DNA of 49,508 nt from Terriglobales bacterium. Its GTDB lineage: Bacteria; Acidobacteriota; Terriglobia; Terriglobales; Acidobacteriaceae. Position numbers and translations under genes: made by a program. The stretch lies in the NCBI GenBank assembly GCA_049698855.1, contig JBAVYO010000234.1, positions 1 to 49,508 of the forward strand. Direction: 5' to 3'. This document shows positions 14,987 to 48,386 of this stretch, in pieces (position 1 is the first letter of the stretch; each line of letters opens with the position of its first letter). The notes under the pieces are model-generated. The model worked only from the letters and a program-made list of their open reading frames with translations. It was not told the DNA's origin and did no database searches.

Positions 14987-15063
14987 TGGTAGGCACGAGG
15001 AGACTCGAACTCCTGACCTCTACCGTGTCAAGGTAGCGCTCTAACCAACTGAGCTACGCGCCT
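14987..15063 (-). tRNA. tRNA-Val (anticodon GAC), CCA encoded
   Basis: The reverse complement folds as a cloverleaf: AGGCGCG-TA-GCTC-AGTTGGTTA-GAGC-G-CTACC-TTGACAC-GGTAG-AGGTC-AGGAG-TTCGAGT-CTCCT-CGTGCCT-A-CCA. Confidence 0.93.
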
Positions 15064-17414: not shown

Positions 17415-18089
17415 ATGAAACTCCGTAAACTCCAGCCCCTGTTCTTCGCGCTCGCTCTTGTCTGCACCCTCACCTGTCCATGCGCCGCCGTTCCCAAGCC
17501 GCACGTCATCGCCTTCGGCAAATGGATCGCCGCCAAATATCCCAACGCCACCGGCCAAAAGCTCCTCGACCTCAAAGTCCGCCCACTATTCGTCGATACG
17601 CGCCTCAAGGAGTACACCACCGGCGCTCCCCACGATCTGACCGACCGTCTCTTCGTGGTGCGGCGCGCCTTCCGCATTAACGACGCCCTGCCAGCCGAAA
17701 CCACCGCGCACTGGCAATGGCAGCGCGGAGGCTGGCTTCTCGTCGACCGCCTCACCGGACGCGTCTCGCAACTCAACCTGCCCGAGTTCGATCCTTATTA
17801 TTCGGCCGCGAGCTGGTATCGCGACTACATCGCCTACTGCGGAGTCTCCGACGACGGCAAAAAGCTCTATGCCATGGTGGCGCAGGTAGGACGCCGCAAG
17901 CCCGTCCTGAAAAAAGATGTAGGCGAGCCCGCCGCCGGCGACGATCCCGATTCCGAATGCCCTCCGCCAGCCTGGGAGCGCAGCCCCATGCGCGTGACAT
18001 TTGTGCCCGACGAGGATCAGAAGGTAGTCTTCTCCATCCGCAACCGCGTAGTCGACGTAGTGAACGACGCGGAAGAAGCGGAAGAATAG
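17415..18089 (+). CDS. Hypothetical secreted protein
   Basis: ATG at 17415 preceded by 'caagga'. Signal peptide 'MKLRKLQPLFFALALVCTLTCPCAAVP'. The ORF-track start at 17190 would run through a REP-like GC palindrome and overlap the divergent regulator start. Confidence 0.6.
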   Translation: MKLRKLQPLFFALALVCTLTCPCAAVPKPHVIAFGKWIAAKYPNATGQKLLDLKVRPLFVDTRLKEYTTGAPHDLTDRLFVVRRAFRINDALPAETTAHWQWQRGGWLLVDRLTGRVSQLNLPEFDPYYSAASWYRDYIAYCGVSDDGKKLYAMVAQVGRRKPVLKKDVGEPAAGDDPDSECPPPAWERSPMRVTFVPDEDQKVVFSIRNRVVDVVNDAEEAEE

Positions 18090-18099
18090 CCCGCGTAGG

Positions 18100-18161
18100 G
18101 GCGGACGCATTCGTCCGCCAAAGGATCCTGATTTTGGGTGGCGCAGCGGTTCACCGCTGCG
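18100..18161. repeat. Two GC-rich REP-like stem-loops (ggcggacg-catt-cgtccgcc at 18100-18119; cgcagcgg-ttca-ccgctgcg at 18142-18161)
   Basis: Both are 8-bp GC stems with 4-nt loops, starting 10 nt after the stop at 18089. No U-tract. A similar stem-loop, cccgccgg-ctgt-ccggcggg, is at 17273-17292. Confidence 0.6.
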
Positions 18162-18192
18162 ATGAGGGTACCCCCCTCCCCCGGTCTATTGG

Positions 18193-18261
18193 AATCAAGA
18201 CTTTGGCGACAAATTTTTGCAAAGTCTTGAGCCGTAAGCAGTTATAGTCAAAGTCTTGATT
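18193..18261. repeat. Three copies of an 11-13-nt motif (aatcaagactttg / caaagtcttga / caaagtcttgatt) at the left edge of the AT-richer islet
   Basis: Copy 1 (18193-18205) is the reverse complement of copies 2 (18220-18230) and 3 (18249-18261). Confidence 0.7.
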
Positions 18262-18494
18262 ACGCATTACTTACGTCTGATCCCCCACTTTTTCCCCGGA
18301 TCAGCGGGCAGTCTTGGGACGACAATTGAGTTGGGCCCGCTGGATTCAGGGAATATGTGTTGATCAATTTTGTCACTTAGTAAGTGGCGTTGTCTATGAC
18401 GTAGGACACATGGAAATTGTGATGAATCAAGTACCGAAATGGGACGGTAGGGAGCCTCAGACCTCGCTAGACCCGCCCGTTCACTCGAAACTCT

Positions 18495-18620
18495 CTATGG
18501 AATGGGGTCAGTCAATTTTTTTGTTGGATGACCGTATGAGAAATAGTCATAGTAGAAGTCGCTTGCCTTCGTAATGGACAAGAGCATTCGATGGAAACGA
18601 AGCTTTAGGAGTTTGATGTC
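18495..18620 (-). pseudogene. Orphan 41-codon open frame, the probable displaced 3' end of the 484-aa gene
   Basis: Minus-strand translation from 18620 gives 'DIKLLKLRFHRMLLSITKASDFYYDYFSYGHPTKKLTDPIP*'. It has no start codon of its own. It abuts the outer edge of the left 32-bp inverted repeat. Confidence 0.45.
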
Positions 18621-18621
18621 C

Positions 18622-18653
18622 CTAATTAGGGCAAGGATATACTTGACCCGACC
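18622..18653 (+). repeat. Left 32-bp inverted repeat: ctaattagggcaaggatatacttgacccgacc
   Basis: The reverse complement of 20457-20488 is ctaattagggcaagaatatacttgacccgacc, with a single mismatch. Confidence 0.9.
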
Positions 18654-18671
18654 ACGCTATTTCTGTATTAT
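18643..18671 (+). promoter_or_regulatory. Sigma70-like promoter: TTGACC - 17 nt - TATTAT, reading into the cassette
   Basis: The -35 (18643-18648) lies inside the left repeat, and the -10 is at 18666-18671. The first ATG (18679) is about 7 nt after the -10, giving a leaderless or very short leader. The next ATG is at 18694. Confidence 0.55.
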
Positions 18672-18678
18672 TTGAGTC

Positions 18679-19173
18679 ATGGAGAACAAGGCCATGACCG
18701 AACCTAAGAGTCTGCAAGAAGCAATCGTCTACTTCTCGAACCCCGACAACTGCATTGACTATCTCGCTGTCCGCCGTTGGCCGAACGGTAAGGTTGTCTG
18801 CCCCACTTGCGGTTGCGAGACTGTCAAATTCAGCGAGAAGCGCCGAACTTGGACTTGTGCGAAGCATCATGCAAAGCGCGAGTTCTCCATCAAGATCGGC
18901 ACCGTCATGGAAGATTCCGCTATTCCTTTGGACAAATGGCTCACCGCAACTTGGCTGGTCACCAACTGCAAGAACGGAATCAGTAGCTATGAGATTGCGC
19001 GTGATGTGAAGGTCACCCAAAAGTCGGCATGGTTCATGCTTCACCGGATTCGCCTTGCTATGCGGGACGATTTCTTCGGTTCCAAACTGGGCGGCGAAGT
19101 CGAAGTCGATGAGACTTTCATCGGCGGCAAAGCGCGAAACATGCACGCCTTGGAGTCGGAAACGCGGGCCTAA
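18679..19173 (+). pseudogene. IS1595-family (ISXO2-like) transposase, N-terminal 164 aa only: Zn-ribbon plus HTH, with the DDE domain missing
   Basis: 'FSNPDNCIDYLAVRRWPNGKVVCPTCGCETVKF...WTCAKHH..FSIKIGTVMEDSAIPLDKWLTATWLVTNCKNGISSYEIARDVKVTQKSAWFMLHRIRLAM'. It stops just after 'VEVDETFIGGKARNMH', where the DDE domain normally begins. Confidence 0.75.
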
Positions 19174-19457
19174 TCCGCCGCGCTCTCAGTCTCGCCCCGA
19201 AAACTGATGCGATCCGCAATTTCCCCAAGAGCCTGATAGGACTTCTGGAAACTGTCCACATTTGGGCGAATGGCACTGTCGTATTGTTTCCTGCATCCGG
19301 GACAATCCTTCGGACAAAAGGCATTGTCATATTTTTGAGCCAATTCGTGCGGTTCCTTCATGTCGAGAGTAACGACCGTCTTACAAAGCGGACACTCGAT
19401 AGAAACGAATCGCAGATCGGCAAGCGATACTACAAGTTGTTTATGCATGAGCAACAT
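19170..19457 (-). CDS. Hypothetical 95-aa Cys-rich (possible zinc-ribbon) protein
   Basis: It has a CPLC...CPKDCPGC pattern. Its ATG overlaps the stop of the upstream 49-aa ORF (TAATG). Its stop overlaps the transposase-fragment stop by 4 nt, in convergent orientation. Confidence 0.5.
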   Translation of the reverse strand: MLLMHKQLVVSLADLRFVSIECPLCKTVVTLDMKEPHELAQKYDNAFCPKDCPGCRKQYDSAIRPNVDSFQKSYQALGEIADRISFRGETESAAD

Positions 19458-19606
19458 TATGGTCGCTCTTTTCTTGCCGTGGAAGCCCTAGCCCGCTTTT
19501 TCTGTGCTCGTTTACGCCTCCACTCTTTGTCGCGCTTCTGGATTTCTTCGTGGGACACAGATAGAAGCCTTCGCACCACAGCATCGAACTTTTCGCTCTC
19601 GGTCAC
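19457..19606 (-). CDS. Untracked 49-aa basic protein (GTG start): VTESEKFDAVVRRLLSVSHEEIQKRDKEWRRKRAQKKRARASTARKERP
   Basis: The GTG overlaps the TGA of the DUF3800-like gene (GTGA) and is preceded by 'agaaaggggg'. Its TAA overlaps the next ATG (TAATG). It is too short for the supplied ORF track. Confidence 0.5.
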   Translation of the reverse strand: MTESEKFDAVVRRLLSVSHEEIQKRDKEWRRKRAQKKRARASTARKERP

Positions 19607-20361
19607 GCCACCCCCTTTCTCTTGTCTTCCAATTCTTTGATAGCCTCAAGGCCCCGTTTGTCTATCCAGTGAGAATAGATACTAGCCTTCATGCCCAGCA
19701 TGGTTTCTAGGGCTTTCCTCATATCTCGACCCGTCCACAGCGTGTCATCCAAGCGTCGCATTAGTTCGTAGGCAATCAAATCGGCGCTTTGTAGTCCTAC
19801 GTCTTCTCGCCAAGTGAGCGGGGTAATGCTCACAAAACGGTGCCGTCTCGGCCATGTTGGGTCATCAACTAAACTGTTATAGCCACGCAACGCCCCTTCG
19901 TCCCAGTCGCCGTGATCATGGATGATTGCAACCCGATCCTCACTCTTCGCGTCATCCATCGCATGGGCTATTTCTACCATTATTTCTTTCATACACAGGA
20001 CGTAAGCGTCAGACTCGTCGGCAGTGGGAAATATCTCAACCATTGCCTTTAGGTCTATACCGCAGGCAACGCACGTCATGGCCGGACTGCTAACGAACTT
20101 TAGAAGCTTGCGCACTAGCCTAAGTTTTCTATTCGCCTCTTTTTCCCATCCAGTGAATTCCCCGTCGTTGGCGTTCATCTGAGCCGCGTGGTACCGAGAT
20201 ATTTGCCTATCAGGTCCGAGGGTCCGATTTTCGTAGGCGATGGCCTTCTGCCATCTCTTCTGCAATCGCTTCCATTGGTGGTCGTTTGCAATCCAACCGC
20301 CCACCATGAAACTCCTCTTCTCTTTGTAGCTTTCATCAAACTTGAACGTGAGGACAGCCAT
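19603..20361 (-). CDS. DUF3800-like protein
   Basis: N-terminal 'LTFKFDESY' (DES motif) and C-terminal 'GLQSADLIAYEL' (QxxD motif), both typical of DUF3800. The ATG at 20361 has a GGAGGG Shine-Dalgarno sequence. The ORF-track start at 20415 would lie close to the predicted transcription start. Confidence 0.6.
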   Translation of the reverse strand: MAVLTFKFDESYKEKRSFMVGGWIANDHQWKRLQKRWQKAIAYENRTLGPDRQISRYHAAQMNANDGEFTGWEKEANRKLRLVRKLLKFVSSPAMTCVACGIDLKAMVEIFPTADESDAYVLCMKEIMVEIAHAMDDAKSEDRVAIIHDHGDWDEGALRGYNSLVDDPTWPRRHRFVSITPLTWREDVGLQSADLIAYELMRRLDDTLWTGRDMRKALETMLGMKASIYSHWIDKRGLEAIKELEDKRKGVA

Positions 20362-21790
20362 AACCCTCCGTCCTTTCCTGTCGGGATGAACAATGTGCGC
20401 TATTTCGCAAATCATCGCGCACCCCCGCCCTGACGACCATCATGCGCTTTGCGCTCGGTCGGGTCAAGTATATTCTTGCCCTAATTAGATCCACGATTTC
20501 TTCGGTCTCGCTGGTACCTCCGTGTGCCGCAGCGTTCCGTCGACTCCATGCCCTTTTCTCTCTTTCTCCCAGATCGAGCTGGAGAAGGGCCATAAGATTT
20601 TCCGTAACAAGGCTCTGAGGTCGTGCGTTTAGCCCATCGAGCTTATTCTTCATGATCCCTTTCACCTTCTCATCGACTGCTAGCACCGAAATTGCGCTTT
20701 CCGCAGAAGCCTTGATCCGCTTCCACTCTTCACGTTCGAATAACTTTGTCTTTAGGGCATTCCTATTCGCCTTTAGATATGATCGCTGTAGGGCCTCGAC
20801 AACCGCACCAAAATGGACGGCTGCAATATGCGGTGTCGCACACACGGCGTGCCAATATGCCCAGCTTAGATGACCAAAATCGAGAGCGTCATAGTTCGAA
20901 TAAATCGAATTGACCATTCGGGACAGGACATCCCGATCAAGTTCGCCTTCATAATTCTTTCCCAGAGGAGACGGGGGCAAAGGCGGCAGTTCAAAAGCTT
21001 TTCTTCCTAAACTATAAGCGCTGATCGCCTCAAACGAGGCTAATGCCCAATCTTCGGAAAACGTTGAACACCCAAGATAGACAAAGTATGTGCCCAGCGA
21101 AAAGGAGAGGCATCTTCTTACTTTGTTCCTAAATTCTTCCGTAGGAGCGCCCATATACAAAATGAAACCCGGCTTGCTGACCGTCTTTGCGGCTGCTGGC
21201 GTGGCTGCACAGAGGTAAAGTTCTCGCCCGTCAACACTAATCTTCGCGCAATTCCTGCTTGATGCCGTGTTTCTTCTCCCCGCTTTCAGAACCGGCCCGC
21301 TATTGCCGCCGCAGAGCGTGCGCGTTTTTGTGATCTCAGTCTCATCATCGCAAGTGTCGGGCCAGAGAAAGGAGTCATCCACGTTAGCTAGCCAGTCAAT
21401 GACGTGCTTTGGTTCAAGACTCGGGGCGATAGTTCCCCTAAGGCTGTGTATTGAGCACTCCTCTCGCAATTCACTCTGCGCTGGATCGCCAAAGAATGAG
21501 CTTTTCCAGCCACGCGACTGCACGCCCGCAGCGACGACTTCTATGCCCCTGCCATCGGATAGTGTCACTGCATCAGTGTTAACGCGCACCGTCCCAAGAG
21601 GATAATCAGCGGCAATGCTCGTAGCGGTTTGCTCAGCCCGAGTTTCCATGATCAGTTTAAGTTTTTCATCTCGACTGATAGAGAAACGACGAATGGGAGC
21701 CCGAAGTGGACCGCTATCCACAATATTGAAGGAGTTGTTATTTAGAAGCCTCTCGAAAGATTCCCACTCCCAGTCATACGTCAAAGGCAT
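20336..21790 (-). CDS. Hypothetical 484-aa protein with a C-terminal HEPN-like R-x4-H motif. Its 3' end is probably replaced by the cassette insertion.
   Basis: No family was recognised for the N-terminal ~300 aa. The C-terminal helical region contains 'FGAVVEALQRSY' and 'AWSRRNAAAHGG' (RNxxxH at 20522-20542). The last ~50 codons read through the right inverted repeat and promoter and are Arg/Ser-rich junk. Confidence 0.55.
   Translation of the reverse strand: MPLTYDWEWESFERLLNNNSFNIVDSGPLRAPIRRFSISRDEKLKLIMETRAEQTATSIAADYPLGTVRVNTDAVTLSDGRGIEVVAAGVQSRGWKSSFFGDPAQSELREECSIHSLRGTIAPSLEPKHVIDWLANVDDSFLWPDTCDDETEITKTRTLCGGNSGPVLKAGRRNTASSRNCAKISVDGRELYLCAATPAAAKTVSKPGFILYMGAPTEEFRNKVRRCLSFSLGTYFVYLGCSTFSEDWALASFEAISAYSLGRKAFELPPLPPSPLGKNYEGELDRDVLSRMVNSIYSNYDALDFGHLSWAYWHAVCATPHIAAVHFGAVVEALQRSYLKANRNALKTKLFEREEWKRIKASAESAISVLAVDEKVKGIMKNKLDGLNARPQSLVTENLMALLQLDLGEREKRAWSRRNAAAHGGTSETEEIVDLIRARIYLTRPSAKRMMVVRAGVRDDLRNSAHCSSRQERTEGYGCPHVQV
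20439..20467 (-). promoter_or_regulatory. Sigma70-like promoter: TTGACC - 17 nt - CATGAT, reading into the cassette toward the DUF3800-like gene
   Basis: The same -35 lies inside the right repeat (20467-20462, minus strand), and the -10 is at 20444-20439. Downstream, 'ggacggagggtt' (GGAGGG) precedes the ATG at 20361. Confidence 0.5.
20457..20488 (-). repeat. Right 32-bp inverted repeat
   Basis: See the left repeat. This copy lies inside the 3' tail of the 484-aa ORF. Confidence 0.9.
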
Positions 21791-21828
21791 CCCCCGGCAA
21801 CATCAAGAACCAAACACTATCAAACGCT

Positions 21829-22770
21829 TCAATCCGCAACAACAACTTCTTCCGCCACAACTCGACTTGAAACTTTCGCGCTCGTTACCAGCACAACTGA
21901 CGCCACAATAATCGCACTTCCCATCGCAATGTAGCGGTCGATGCGTTCGTGGAGAACCAGCCATCCGAGAAAGACAGCGACCACAGGATTGACGTAAGCG
22001 TAAGTCGAGACCTTGGACGTGGGAACGTGCTGCAGCAGCCAGATGTAAGCTGTGTAACCAATCCACGATCCGCAGACGACGAGATAGAAGATCGCGCCTA
22101 ATCCGCGCGCGGTCCAGACAACATGCGCGTGGCGCTCAAACGCGAGCGCGTACGCAAGGTTGGCCACGCCCGCGAACACAACTTGCCATGCAGTCGTGCT
22201 GAACGGATCGCCCGCTGCTGTCTTCCACTTCTTAGAGAGCACGGAACCAAGCGCCCAGCTCAACGAGCCTCCTTGGAGCGCGAGAGACCACCAGAACTCG
22301 CGGCGTCCGAACGCAGTGGTTTGCGCCAGCGTTGGCCAGATAAGAACGACGACGCCGAAGATACCAATAATGAGGCCAACCTTGCCGCGCCGCGAGATGT
22401 GATGGTCGCCAAGCAGCAGGCTATCGATCACCTGGAACCATAGCGGACTTACAGCAACCAGCAGCGCGGCCAATCCTGTGGGAACGATCTGCTCGGCATA
22501 AGAGAGCGTGAGGTTTCCGCCCATGAGAAGCAGCGTGCCAACCACGGCCAGATGCGCGAGATGGCGCGCGGAGAAACGGATTTGGCGTCCTGTAGCGGCG
22601 CAATAGGCGAGCATGACGATGCCCGCGACAAGGAAGCGCACCGCGCACATCGTTGCAGGAGGAATCTGCTCGACGGCAATGCCGATGCCGAGATAAGTTG
22701 ATCCCCAGAAGACATAGACCAGGCCAAAGGCGAGGATGATCTTCCACTGACCTGGAGATGACGTGGTCAT
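21829..22770 (-). CDS. EamA/DMT-family transporter
   Basis: Ten predicted TM segments in two EamA repeats, e.g. 'LAFGLVYVFWGSTYLGIGIAVEQIPPATMCAVRFLVAG'. Confidence 0.85.
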   Translation of the reverse strand: MTTSSPGQWKIILAFGLVYVFWGSTYLGIGIAVEQIPPATMCAVRFLVAGIVMLAYCAATGRQIRFSARHLAHLAVVGTLLLMGGNLTLSYAEQIVPTGLAALLVAVSPLWFQVIDSLLLGDHHISRRGKVGLIIGIFGVVVLIWPTLAQTTAFGRREFWWSLALQGGSLSWALGSVLSKKWKTAAGDPFSTTAWQVVFAGVANLAYALAFERHAHVVWTARGLGAIFYLVVCGSWIGYTAYIWLLQHVPTSKVSTYAYVNPVVAVFLGWLVLHERIDRYIAMGSAIIVASVVLVTSAKVSSRVVAEEVVVAD

Positions 22771-48309: not shown

Positions 48310-48386
48310 GGCGGTGTAGCTCAGGTGGTTAGAGCGACGGTCTCATAATCCGTAGGTCGTAGGTTCGAGTCCTACCGCCGCCACCA
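48310..48386 (+). tRNA. tRNA with CAU anticodon, an elongator type: tRNA-Met or lysidine-modified tRNA-Ile2. CCA encoded.
   Basis: GGCGGTG-TA-GCTC-AGGTGGTTA-GAGC-G-ACGGT-CTCATAA-TCCGT-AGGTC-GTAGG-TTCGAGT-CCTAC-CGCCGCC-A-CCA. G1-C72 is paired and the anticodon stem lacks the GGG/CCC run, so it is not an initiator. Confidence 0.9.

Follow-up and report, generated by a model that had tools for sequence, protein, structure and literature searches.

Within the contig JBAVYO010000234.1 of a Terriglobales bacterium (assembly GCA_049698855.1), all 49,508 nucleotides of which we analyzed and refer to as the window, three open reading frames (ORFs) on the minus strand face a short transposase gene, and all four lie between the ends of an insertion sequence (IS) of the IS1595 family at 18630-20480 (1,851 bp). 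The first ORF encodes a DUF3800-like protein of 252 aa and runs from an ATG at 20361 to a TGA at 19603 (270 aa if it starts at the in-frame ATG at 20415). The second encodes a basic protein of 49 aa, from a GTG at 19606 to a TAA at 19457, and its start codon overlaps the preceding stop in a GTGA at 19606-19603. The third encodes a four-cysteine protein of 95 aa, from an ATG at 19457 to a TAG at 19170, and overlaps the stop of the 49-aa ORF in a TAATG at 19459-19455. A first-pass annotation of the bare sequence had described the three ORFs with both overlaps, and all were present as described. It had also placed the trio on a mobile cassette in a GC-poor islet, which agrees with the terminal inverted repeats (IRs) and target-site duplication (TSD) of the IS and with a G+C content of ~0.46-0.55 in the trio region versus ~0.60 in the flanks. 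Its account did not extend to the terminal IRs with their TSD, the truncated convergent IS1595 transposase or the interrupted host gene.

The boundaries of the element were defined by comparison with its relatives. A repeat search had returned a 32-nt inverted repeat (97%) at 18622-18653 and 20457-20488, which we rejected as the IR proper: its outer 8 nt are the target duplication, and since this 8-mer is palindromic, the search merged CTAATTAG into the repeat. The true ends are 24-nt IRs that start with GGCAAG and differ by one mismatch, the left one (GGCAAGGATATACTTGACCCGACC) at 18630-18653 on the plus strand and the right one at 20457-20480 on the minus strand. Identical copies of the 8-mer directly abut them at 18622-18629 and 20481-20488, so that the window copy has both the terminal IRs and the perfect 8-bp TSD of an IS1595 element. 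The IR consensus of the clade, found across dozens of loci, is GGCAATAATATACTTGAC (the end consensus is also written GGCAATAATAT/GGCAATTATAT), and it bounds both of the gene layouts described below.

Insertion of the element, with duplication of the 8-mer, split a HEPN-like host gene in its 3' part. The 5' part of this gene (20481-21790, minus strand), with a HEPN-like RRNAAAH motif, appears in the ORF list as a 484-aa ORF that continues into the IS, and the 3' part lies at 18495-18629 (minus strand). Conceptual excision of the IS together with one copy of the 8-mer joins the two parts into a gene for a 478-aa protein, which aligns with its homologue P0073 (479 aa) with no gaps over the junction and to the last residue (72% identity over the last 99 residues), and aligns end to end with a family of mostly ~475-485 aa. 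This family has at least 167 homologues, mostly of that length and none with a Pfam domain. The RRNAAAH motif lies near the C-terminus and is accompanied by a weak PADLOC CARF_HEPN match; the interrupted gene may itself have been a defence-type gene that the IS inactivated.

The transposase gene (18679-19173, plus strand) encodes 164 aa and, by Pfam, NCBIfam and alignment to a sister element at locus L050, is a truncated member of the IS1595 family that retains the Zn-ribbon and helix-turn-helix (HTH)-like N-terminal part. The IS1595-type zinc ribbon, Zn_ribbon_IS1595 (PF12760), was matched at 36.2 bits against a cut-off of 25.4, and NCBIfam transpos_IS1595 at 73.5 bits against a cut-off of 75 (E 2e-20). 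The catalytic domain is missing from the window copy, in which the DDE_Tnp_IS1595 match covers only profile positions 1-22 of 153, and is complete in the sister elements L047, L048 and L050. Relative to L050, with which the transposase 5' region and the IR share 85% nucleotide identity, ~0.5 kb (~497 bp) has been lost internally. The junction lies at ~19145-19147, and the missing base pairs fall between codon 156 (...GGKARNMH) and the final 8 codons, which are kept with the stop. The frame still runs to its stop codon, which meets that of the 95-aa gene with the 4-nt overlap also seen in L050. Because the DDE domain is deleted, the window element is unable to move by itself, and this comparison identifies it as a defective, non-autonomous derivative produced by internal loss of the catalytic domain. 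A related derivative at L126 (917-2469, 1,553 bp) retains cargo and the small ORF between two IRs flanked by a perfect 8-bp duplication, and is devoid of a transposase gene; transposase-less, cargo-bearing derivatives thus recur.

The 49-aa gene (19457-19606, minus strand) belongs to a family aligned on the motif F..F...R+LL.V(P/S)H.EI followed by a basic tail. A metagenome search with this motif, built on a narrow alignment, retrieved 80 loci. The small ORF adjoins a convergent transposase gene in 71 of them (69 by the 4-nt stop overlap), whatever the cargo, and the nine exceptions mostly lack the transposase or stop at a contig edge. This synteny makes the 49-aa gene a backbone gene of the clade, the second beside the transposase. 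The protein matched nothing in Pfam, NCBIfam, PADLOC or PHROGs, and the profile of its family matched nothing in Pfam. Searched against PDB sequences, the profile hit only SRP14, marginally (E 0.003), in the basic helix at its C-terminus, an RNA-binding segment; we set homology to SRP14 aside, as the match is probably composition-driven.

In comparisons among the closest lineages, the proportions of nonsynonymous (pN) and synonymous (pS) differences were 0.085-0.20 and 0.68-0.82 for the 49-aa ORF, and 0.14-0.20 and 0.69-0.86 for the 95-aa ORF. With pN far under pS, both are protein-coding and under strong purifying selection, and both are conserved, which settles in its favor the earlier proposal that the small ORFs are real genes.

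The 95-aa gene (19170-19457, minus strand) encodes what its four invariant cysteines (C22, C25, C52 and C55) suggest is a Zn-ribbon protein, with 13 homologues among 5.8 billion proteins. Its AlphaFold2 (AF2) model (predicted local distance difference test, pLDDT, 82.7) consists of a beta-hairpin and a helix, for which Foldseek found no significant PDB match (none under E 0.3); a PADLOC match to PDC-M14A is marginal (E 0.009). One source names a homologue 'phage Mu Com', which we did not adopt, as there was no Com match in any profile library or fold search. The same gene order, with the TAATG junction and a full-length transposase, is found in L048/L049, L050 and L055. Since full-length sister elements carry the same gene, we also rejected the idea that the ORF is an antisense artefact or a window-specific filler for the DDE domain. 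Distant relatives in L101 and L122 lie next to the opposite IR alongside other cargo, and copies of the family outside any IS occur in L051-L054. The gene is found in four lineages and is missing from most elements of the clade. Comparison thus presents it as an optional accessory, co-inherited with this backbone lineage.

The DUF3800-like gene (19603-20361, minus strand) occupies what we call the cargo slot of the element. The match of its product to Pfam PF12686 spans profile positions 4-148 of 149 and scores 20.7 bits, against a gathering cut-off of 21. Three homologues that are 48-58% identical to it (P0009, P0010 and P0038) carry a precomputed PF12686 match, the DUF3800 proteins of sister elements pass the cut-off with 24-36 bits, and an iterated hidden Markov model connects the window family to these sister proteins. 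The DUF3800 assignment of the first-pass annotation is therefore upheld by near-full profile coverage and by homologues and sisters, though not by the score of the window protein itself. The DES and QxxD motifs to which that annotation pointed are present and conserved, as FKFDES (D9, E10, S11) and LQSAD (Q191, D194). In the homologue alignment D9, H58, H148, D149, Q191, D194 and E199 are invariant and E10 and S11 nearly so, and equivalent conserved residues recur in highly divergent IS-borne DUF3800 relatives. We found 58 homologues in a large protein collection and, in species-representative genomes, 46 loci, mostly from Acidobacteriota (Terriglobia).

In the AF2 model of the DUF3800-like protein (pLDDT 90.4, predicted template modelling score 0.87), the first strand carries D9 and E10, the fourth strand ends in H148 and D149, and the helix after it contains Q191, D194 and E199. 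In the PDB, Foldseek placed the model closest to type-2 RNase H enzymes from archaea, bacteria and humans (1eke, 3asm, 2dff and 3puf); the matches to RNase HII/HIII have probabilities of 0.98-1.0 (1.0 for the top ones, 1eke and 3asm), template modelling (TM) scores of 0.38-0.50 and identities of 8-13%, which points to an RNase H-like fold. RNase HII/HIII and the window protein share an adjacent Asp-Glu pair in the first strand and later acidic residues; unlike these enzymes, the window protein has extra helices and is encoded on a mobile element, not by a housekeeping gene. In type VII retrons, where it is either fused as a domain or encoded as the associated protein, DUF3800 has been described as RNase H2-like with a DEED or DEDD residue set (PMC7736814). 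TPR-DUF3800 accessory proteins with an RNase H fold have been reported beside Cas12a2/a3 (PMC10910872, PMC13594972), and eleven unrelated structured RNA motifs associate with DUF3800 genes (PMC5737381).

About 130 related loci, mostly from Acidobacteriota, share a common plan: IR, variable cargo, small basic ORF, convergent transposase, IR. In the species-representative genomes, an IS1595 transposase adjoins the DUF3800-like gene in ~20 of the 46 loci, in two layouts. In the first, which is that of the window, the DUF3800 gene is followed by the small ORF, facing the transposase. In the second, which accounts for half of the layouts, the transposase faces the small ORF and the DUF3800 gene is divergent from it. 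We also recovered 54 complete relatives with the same IR consensus, mostly of 2.0-3.4 kb (the ends of a few longer ones seem mis-paired or compound). A perfect 8-bp TSD flanks 43 of them and one matching at 7 of 8 positions another four; given the 43 perfect TSDs, these units transpose with their contents.

The content of the slot between the far IR and the small ORF varies. Among the 50 metagenome elements in which the slot is defined, 17 have DUF3800 there and 33 have other content. The alternative cargo comprises an AAA_15/21 ATPase with a DUF3226 partner (PADLOC AbiLi / PDC-M38, E 1e-40 to 1e-44), GmrSD_N (NsnA / PD-T4-2, E 1e-50 to 1e-64) with a HEPN protein, DUF4145 (PD-T7-4), DUF6941, a DUF433 plus PIN-like pair, and several families with no match. 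These last include the genes at L061 1086-1919, L100 3027-4016, L104 865-1611 together with L136 4381-5169, and L099 536-1342, and one unmatched family has a HEPN-like motif, RNPIAH. By their shared position in the slot, the unmatched families are candidate new defence genes.

Sequence identities of the backbone and of the cargo are incongruent. The window element shares 88-90% identity with L048, L050 and L055 in the N-terminal part of the transposase, 70-88% in the small ORF and 72-77% in the 95-aa ORF, and only 19-37%, in partial alignments, in the DUF3800 protein. Its closest DUF3800 relative is instead that of L047 (78%), an element whose transposase N-terminal part is 60% and small ORF 44% identical. 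IS-borne DUF3800 proteins are in general mutually 17-30% identical, versus 55-90% for their transposases. Such incongruence implies that cargo has been exchanged on a conserved backbone, and the comparison marks the DUF3800-like gene as exchangeable cargo.

Transporter ISs, in which passenger genes lie between the IRs, have been described for the IS1595 and IS66 families (bioRxiv 10.1101/2021.05.26.445724), and the window element resembles those of IS1595 in its IRs, its 8-bp TSD, its Zn_ribbon_IS1595 and DDE_Tnp_IS1595 domains (the latter complete in sisters) and its inside passenger genes. Genes other than for transposition lie between its IRs, all within 18630-20480, and the content of the slot varies among relatives. 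In contrast to those ISs, the window copy has no catalytic domain, and the clade has a convergent small second backbone gene and a slot with largely nuclease- or defence-type content. In the literature on IS1595 passenger genes and defence and on ISNwi1 we found only the general definition of a transporter IS; a convergent small gene and a defence-type slot were not described there. The reading that we favor, with moderate confidence for the whole including the mechanism proposed below, is that the locus is a defective IS1595-family transporter IS in which the 49-aa gene belongs to the backbone, DUF3800 is swappable RNase H-like cargo and the 95-aa Zn-ribbon gene is an optional accessory. Its anatomy has good support; a defensive role for DUF3800 and a regulatory one for the small protein are inferred.

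As to the place of the element within the family, it may belong to the ISNwi1 / ISNwi1+ subgroup of the ISfinder table. ISNwi1 has ends of the type ggnnatTAT and a DDE...K signature. The ends GGCAAT(A/T)AT... and the DDE-x6-K pattern NGLENFWSLLK in L050 are compatible with these traits. A plasmid collection was of no help in naming the element, as its closest transposases were at most 40% identical and the two loci inspected had no annotated convergent small gene.

A promoter scan of 18500-20600 found only two sigma-70-like sites, symmetric and directed inward from the IRs. The left one, TTGACC-17-TATTAT at 18643-18671, faces the transposase gene, and the right one, TTGACC-17-CATGAT at 20467-20439, faces the DUF3800, 49-aa and 95-aa genes. 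The -35 box of each lies inside the IR, and its TTGAC belongs to the IR consensus of the whole clade. Elements with the divergent layout have a further conserved promoter-like site for the small ORF, TTGACT-17-TACCCT, located between that ORF and the cargo gene (L047 ~1350-1400, with equivalents in L009, L011, L014 and L015); it accounts for what looks like a conserved 'C.KSQ' peptide upstream of cargo genes that are unrelated.

In the mechanism that we propose, the DUF3800, 49-aa and 95-aa genes would be transcribed from the right-IR site as one translationally coupled operon, which would run convergently into the transposase gene, itself driven from the left-IR site. A sequence scan found no terminator-like site between the trio and the transposase gene, which makes transcriptional or antisense interference with the transposase plausible. 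The DUF3800 protein would be a metal-dependent nuclease with a type-2 RNase H fold and a DE...D...D carboxylate set, acting on RNA/DNA hybrids or other nucleic acid as a conflict or defence effector of the abortive-infection type. This proposal draws on the presence of DUF3800 in type VII retrons and Cas12a2/a3 loci and on the defence-gene matches in sister slots, by which the DUF3800 cargo is probably a defence-type nuclease. The small basic protein, a predicted helix with a Lys/Arg tail, may be an IS factor that binds nucleic acid, whether it regulates transposition or the IR promoters or serves as their cofactor. The 164-aa transposase fragment, finally, may still bind the IRs, occupy both promoters and repress them. 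IS1 InsA and the Tn5 inhibitor protein are transposase-derived repressors, and the 164-aa product likewise comprises only the Zn-ribbon/HTH part, with IRs that overlap both promoter-like sites. Unlike in those two cases, the truncation here arose by deletion and not by programmed expression, and binding and repression are putative.

Several points weigh against the transporter-IS reading or against parts of it. The window protein lies 0.3 bits under the Pfam cut-off for DUF3800, and the Foldseek TM-scores are modest at 8-13% identity. PADLOC 2.0 returned no match for the DUF3800-like or the 49-aa protein and only the marginal one (E 0.009) for the 95-aa protein, and PHROGs and NCBIfam gave nothing significant for the trio proteins. 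The defence role is argued from gene position and from analogies in the literature, and the small protein has no informative homologue, its one match being the marginal one to SRP14. The promoter-like matches are no commoner than in shuffled sequence (2 found versus 1.8 expected). Copies of the defective element on contigs from other samples are 99.8-100% identical, a similarity above 99.8% at which selection on this particular copy is not assessable. Lastly, neither the metagenome loci nor the complete elements included a cargo-less member of the clade, which leaves room for a role of the cargo region in transposition. An accessory or defence role, as suggested by the first-pass annotation, stays plausible through the matches of sister slots to known or candidate defence genes, and finds no support from PADLOC for the DUF3800-like or 49-aa protein.

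The first-pass annotation had further suggested a fixed trio with the character of a toxin-antitoxin (TA) module. In that case the trio would be a self-contained TA or addiction module, with DUF3800 as toxin, the 49-aa protein as antitoxin and the Zn-ribbon protein as regulator, stabilizing the element or the locus. The overlapping start and stop codons would fit, as would the association of DUF3800 with type VII retrons (PMC7736814) and the integrity of all three ORFs despite the transposase deletion, and the DUF433 plus PIN-like pair in the slot of one sister indicates that TA-type cargo does occur. Type II TA operons likewise have small genes that overlap and are transcribed together on a mobile element, and they pair a putative nuclease with a small basic protein. 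Here, however, the small gene tracks the transposase and not the nuclease: it is present with every type of cargo, stays at the 3' end of the transposase gene in those 71 of 80 loci and, in the second layout, is transcribed divergently from DUF3800. DUF3800 is exchanged without its supposed partner, the relationships of the two genes are incongruent, and solitary DUF3800-like genes outside any IS (e.g. L006-L008, L010 and L012) have no detectable adjoining small ORF, which does not agree with a co-inherited pair. We therefore consider a TA module unlikely. The trio does not hold together as a fixed, co-inherited unit either: the order with the TAATG junction recurs in L048/L049, L050 and L055, whereas across the clade the 49-aa gene follows the transposase, DUF3800 is swapped and the 95-aa gene is optional and mostly absent.

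The window copy could also be a decaying, functionless remnant whose ORFs are intact because deletion and insertion are recent. Its transposase is inactivated, all recovered copies are so similar that the element must be young, and frameshifted DUF3800 or transposase genes are common in relatives (L004, L011, L017 and L019). Yet all three genes are under strong purifying selection across lineages, both promoter-like sites are intact, and other transposase-less derivatives, such as that in L126, keep cargo, small ORF, IRs and a perfect TSD. We judge this explanation, too, to have little probability.

The RNA motifs associated with DUF3800 genes (PMC5737381) raise the question whether the protein works with a structured non-coding RNA encoded by the element. 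Directly upstream of the DUF3800 ATG, at 20362-20415 (minus strand), 18 in-frame codons (MICEIAHIVHPDRKGRRV), that is ~54 nt, are conserved in IS-borne and not in solitary homologues, and could be that RNA. The stretch is in frame, however, with conservation by codon position of 0.59/0.70/0.53, a codon-like period, and it is headed by a start codon (ATG, GTG or TTG) in the window and its closest relatives, which makes an N-terminal extension likelier. The protein may really be 270 aa long, or the stretch may be a cis element. Rfam 15 at gathering score found only the two tRNA genes in the window, neither of them next to the element, and no DUF3800-associated or otherwise relevant RNA in 16 sister loci; relaxed to E up to 5, it found no match in 18000-22000, and the predicted fold of the 5' leader is unremarkable (z = -1.47). 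A partner RNA is improbable on these results.

Least probable of all is that DUF3800 is an accessory nuclease of transposition, making a TnsA-like second-strand cut as in Tn7 or processing an RNA/DNA intermediate, with the trio as transposition functions: its RNase H-like nuclease fold, its constant position within the IRs and the lack of any clade member without a cargo region would suit this, but unrelated genes replace it in 33 of 50 elements that still have perfect TSDs, it is far more divergent among elements (17-30% identity) than are the transposases (55-90%), and its homologues also occur away from any IS.

Two known groups of DUF3800 proteins are close to that of the window, those from type VII retrons and the TPR-DUF3800 proteins encoded beside Cas12a2/a3. 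It shares with them the DE(S) and QxxD motifs, the RNase H2-like fold and the association with mobile elements and defence loci. The IS, in contrast, is without reverse transcriptase, msr/msd, CRISPR array or TPR domain, and the window gene is the single-gene cargo of an insertion sequence; of the four ORFs between the IRs none is reverse transcriptase-like, and no Rfam RNA family occurs in the region.

Further observations concern the surroundings of the element and of its relatives. In L136 (4337-6770), and also in L137 and L138, all three contigs from other samples, a second complete element of the clade (2,434 bp) with different cargo sits in tandem in the same CTAATTAG as at window 18622-18629, so that the site is present three times. 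It encodes a 262-aa cargo protein of unknown kind, a 96-aa ORF, a 49-aa small ORF and a 321-aa transposase. Its presence in these loci and its lack in the window is a population polymorphism, and the site may be a target hot-spot. In L139 (1-1110) the defective element (99.8% identical) is followed by a different flank, CTAAATAG, and then by an FAA_hydrolase gene; this points to a chimeric assembly or to a second insertion site, and the latter would imply mobilization in trans. A group II intron domain in L045 (10378-10602, minus strand) and an Acido-Lenti-1 RNA in L011 (10209-10255, plus strand) both fall beyond the IS1595 elements of these loci, with ~2-3 kb to the nearer IR, and seem unrelated to them. 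The two tRNA genes of the window, at 14990-15063 (minus strand) and 48310-48383 (plus strand), do not adjoin the element.

A bolder extension, which we put forward tentatively and hold to be possible but not the likelier case, is that this IS1595 clade of the Acidobacteriota is a dedicated anti-phage gene shuttle, with a fixed backbone made of the transposase, the small basic protein and the promoters in the IRs, and with a plug-in slot whose cargo passes from element to element. DUF3800 would then be a stand-alone RNase H-like abortive-infection effector, the 95-aa gene and the cargo of L061, L100, L104/L136 and L099 would be new defence or regulatory genes, and transposase-deleted copies such as that in the window would be retained by the host as domesticated defence loci, repressed by the transposase fragment.

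With this analysis, three ORFs that had no explanation become part of a defined mobile element whose boundaries are clear and whose insertion and inactivating deletion can both be dated. DUF3800, an orphan domain of wide distribution, has links to retrons, to Cas12a2/a3 loci and to eleven RNA motifs, and, if our reading is true, its occurrence as single-gene cargo in a defence-type slot would offer a simple, testable system for its function. An IS1595 clade that always carries cargo and has a second backbone gene would likewise extend the concept of the transporter IS. Neither of these broader points changes established principles; if they hold, a search of the cargo slot could yield new defence genes from the Acidobacteriota, a phylum that has been little studied.

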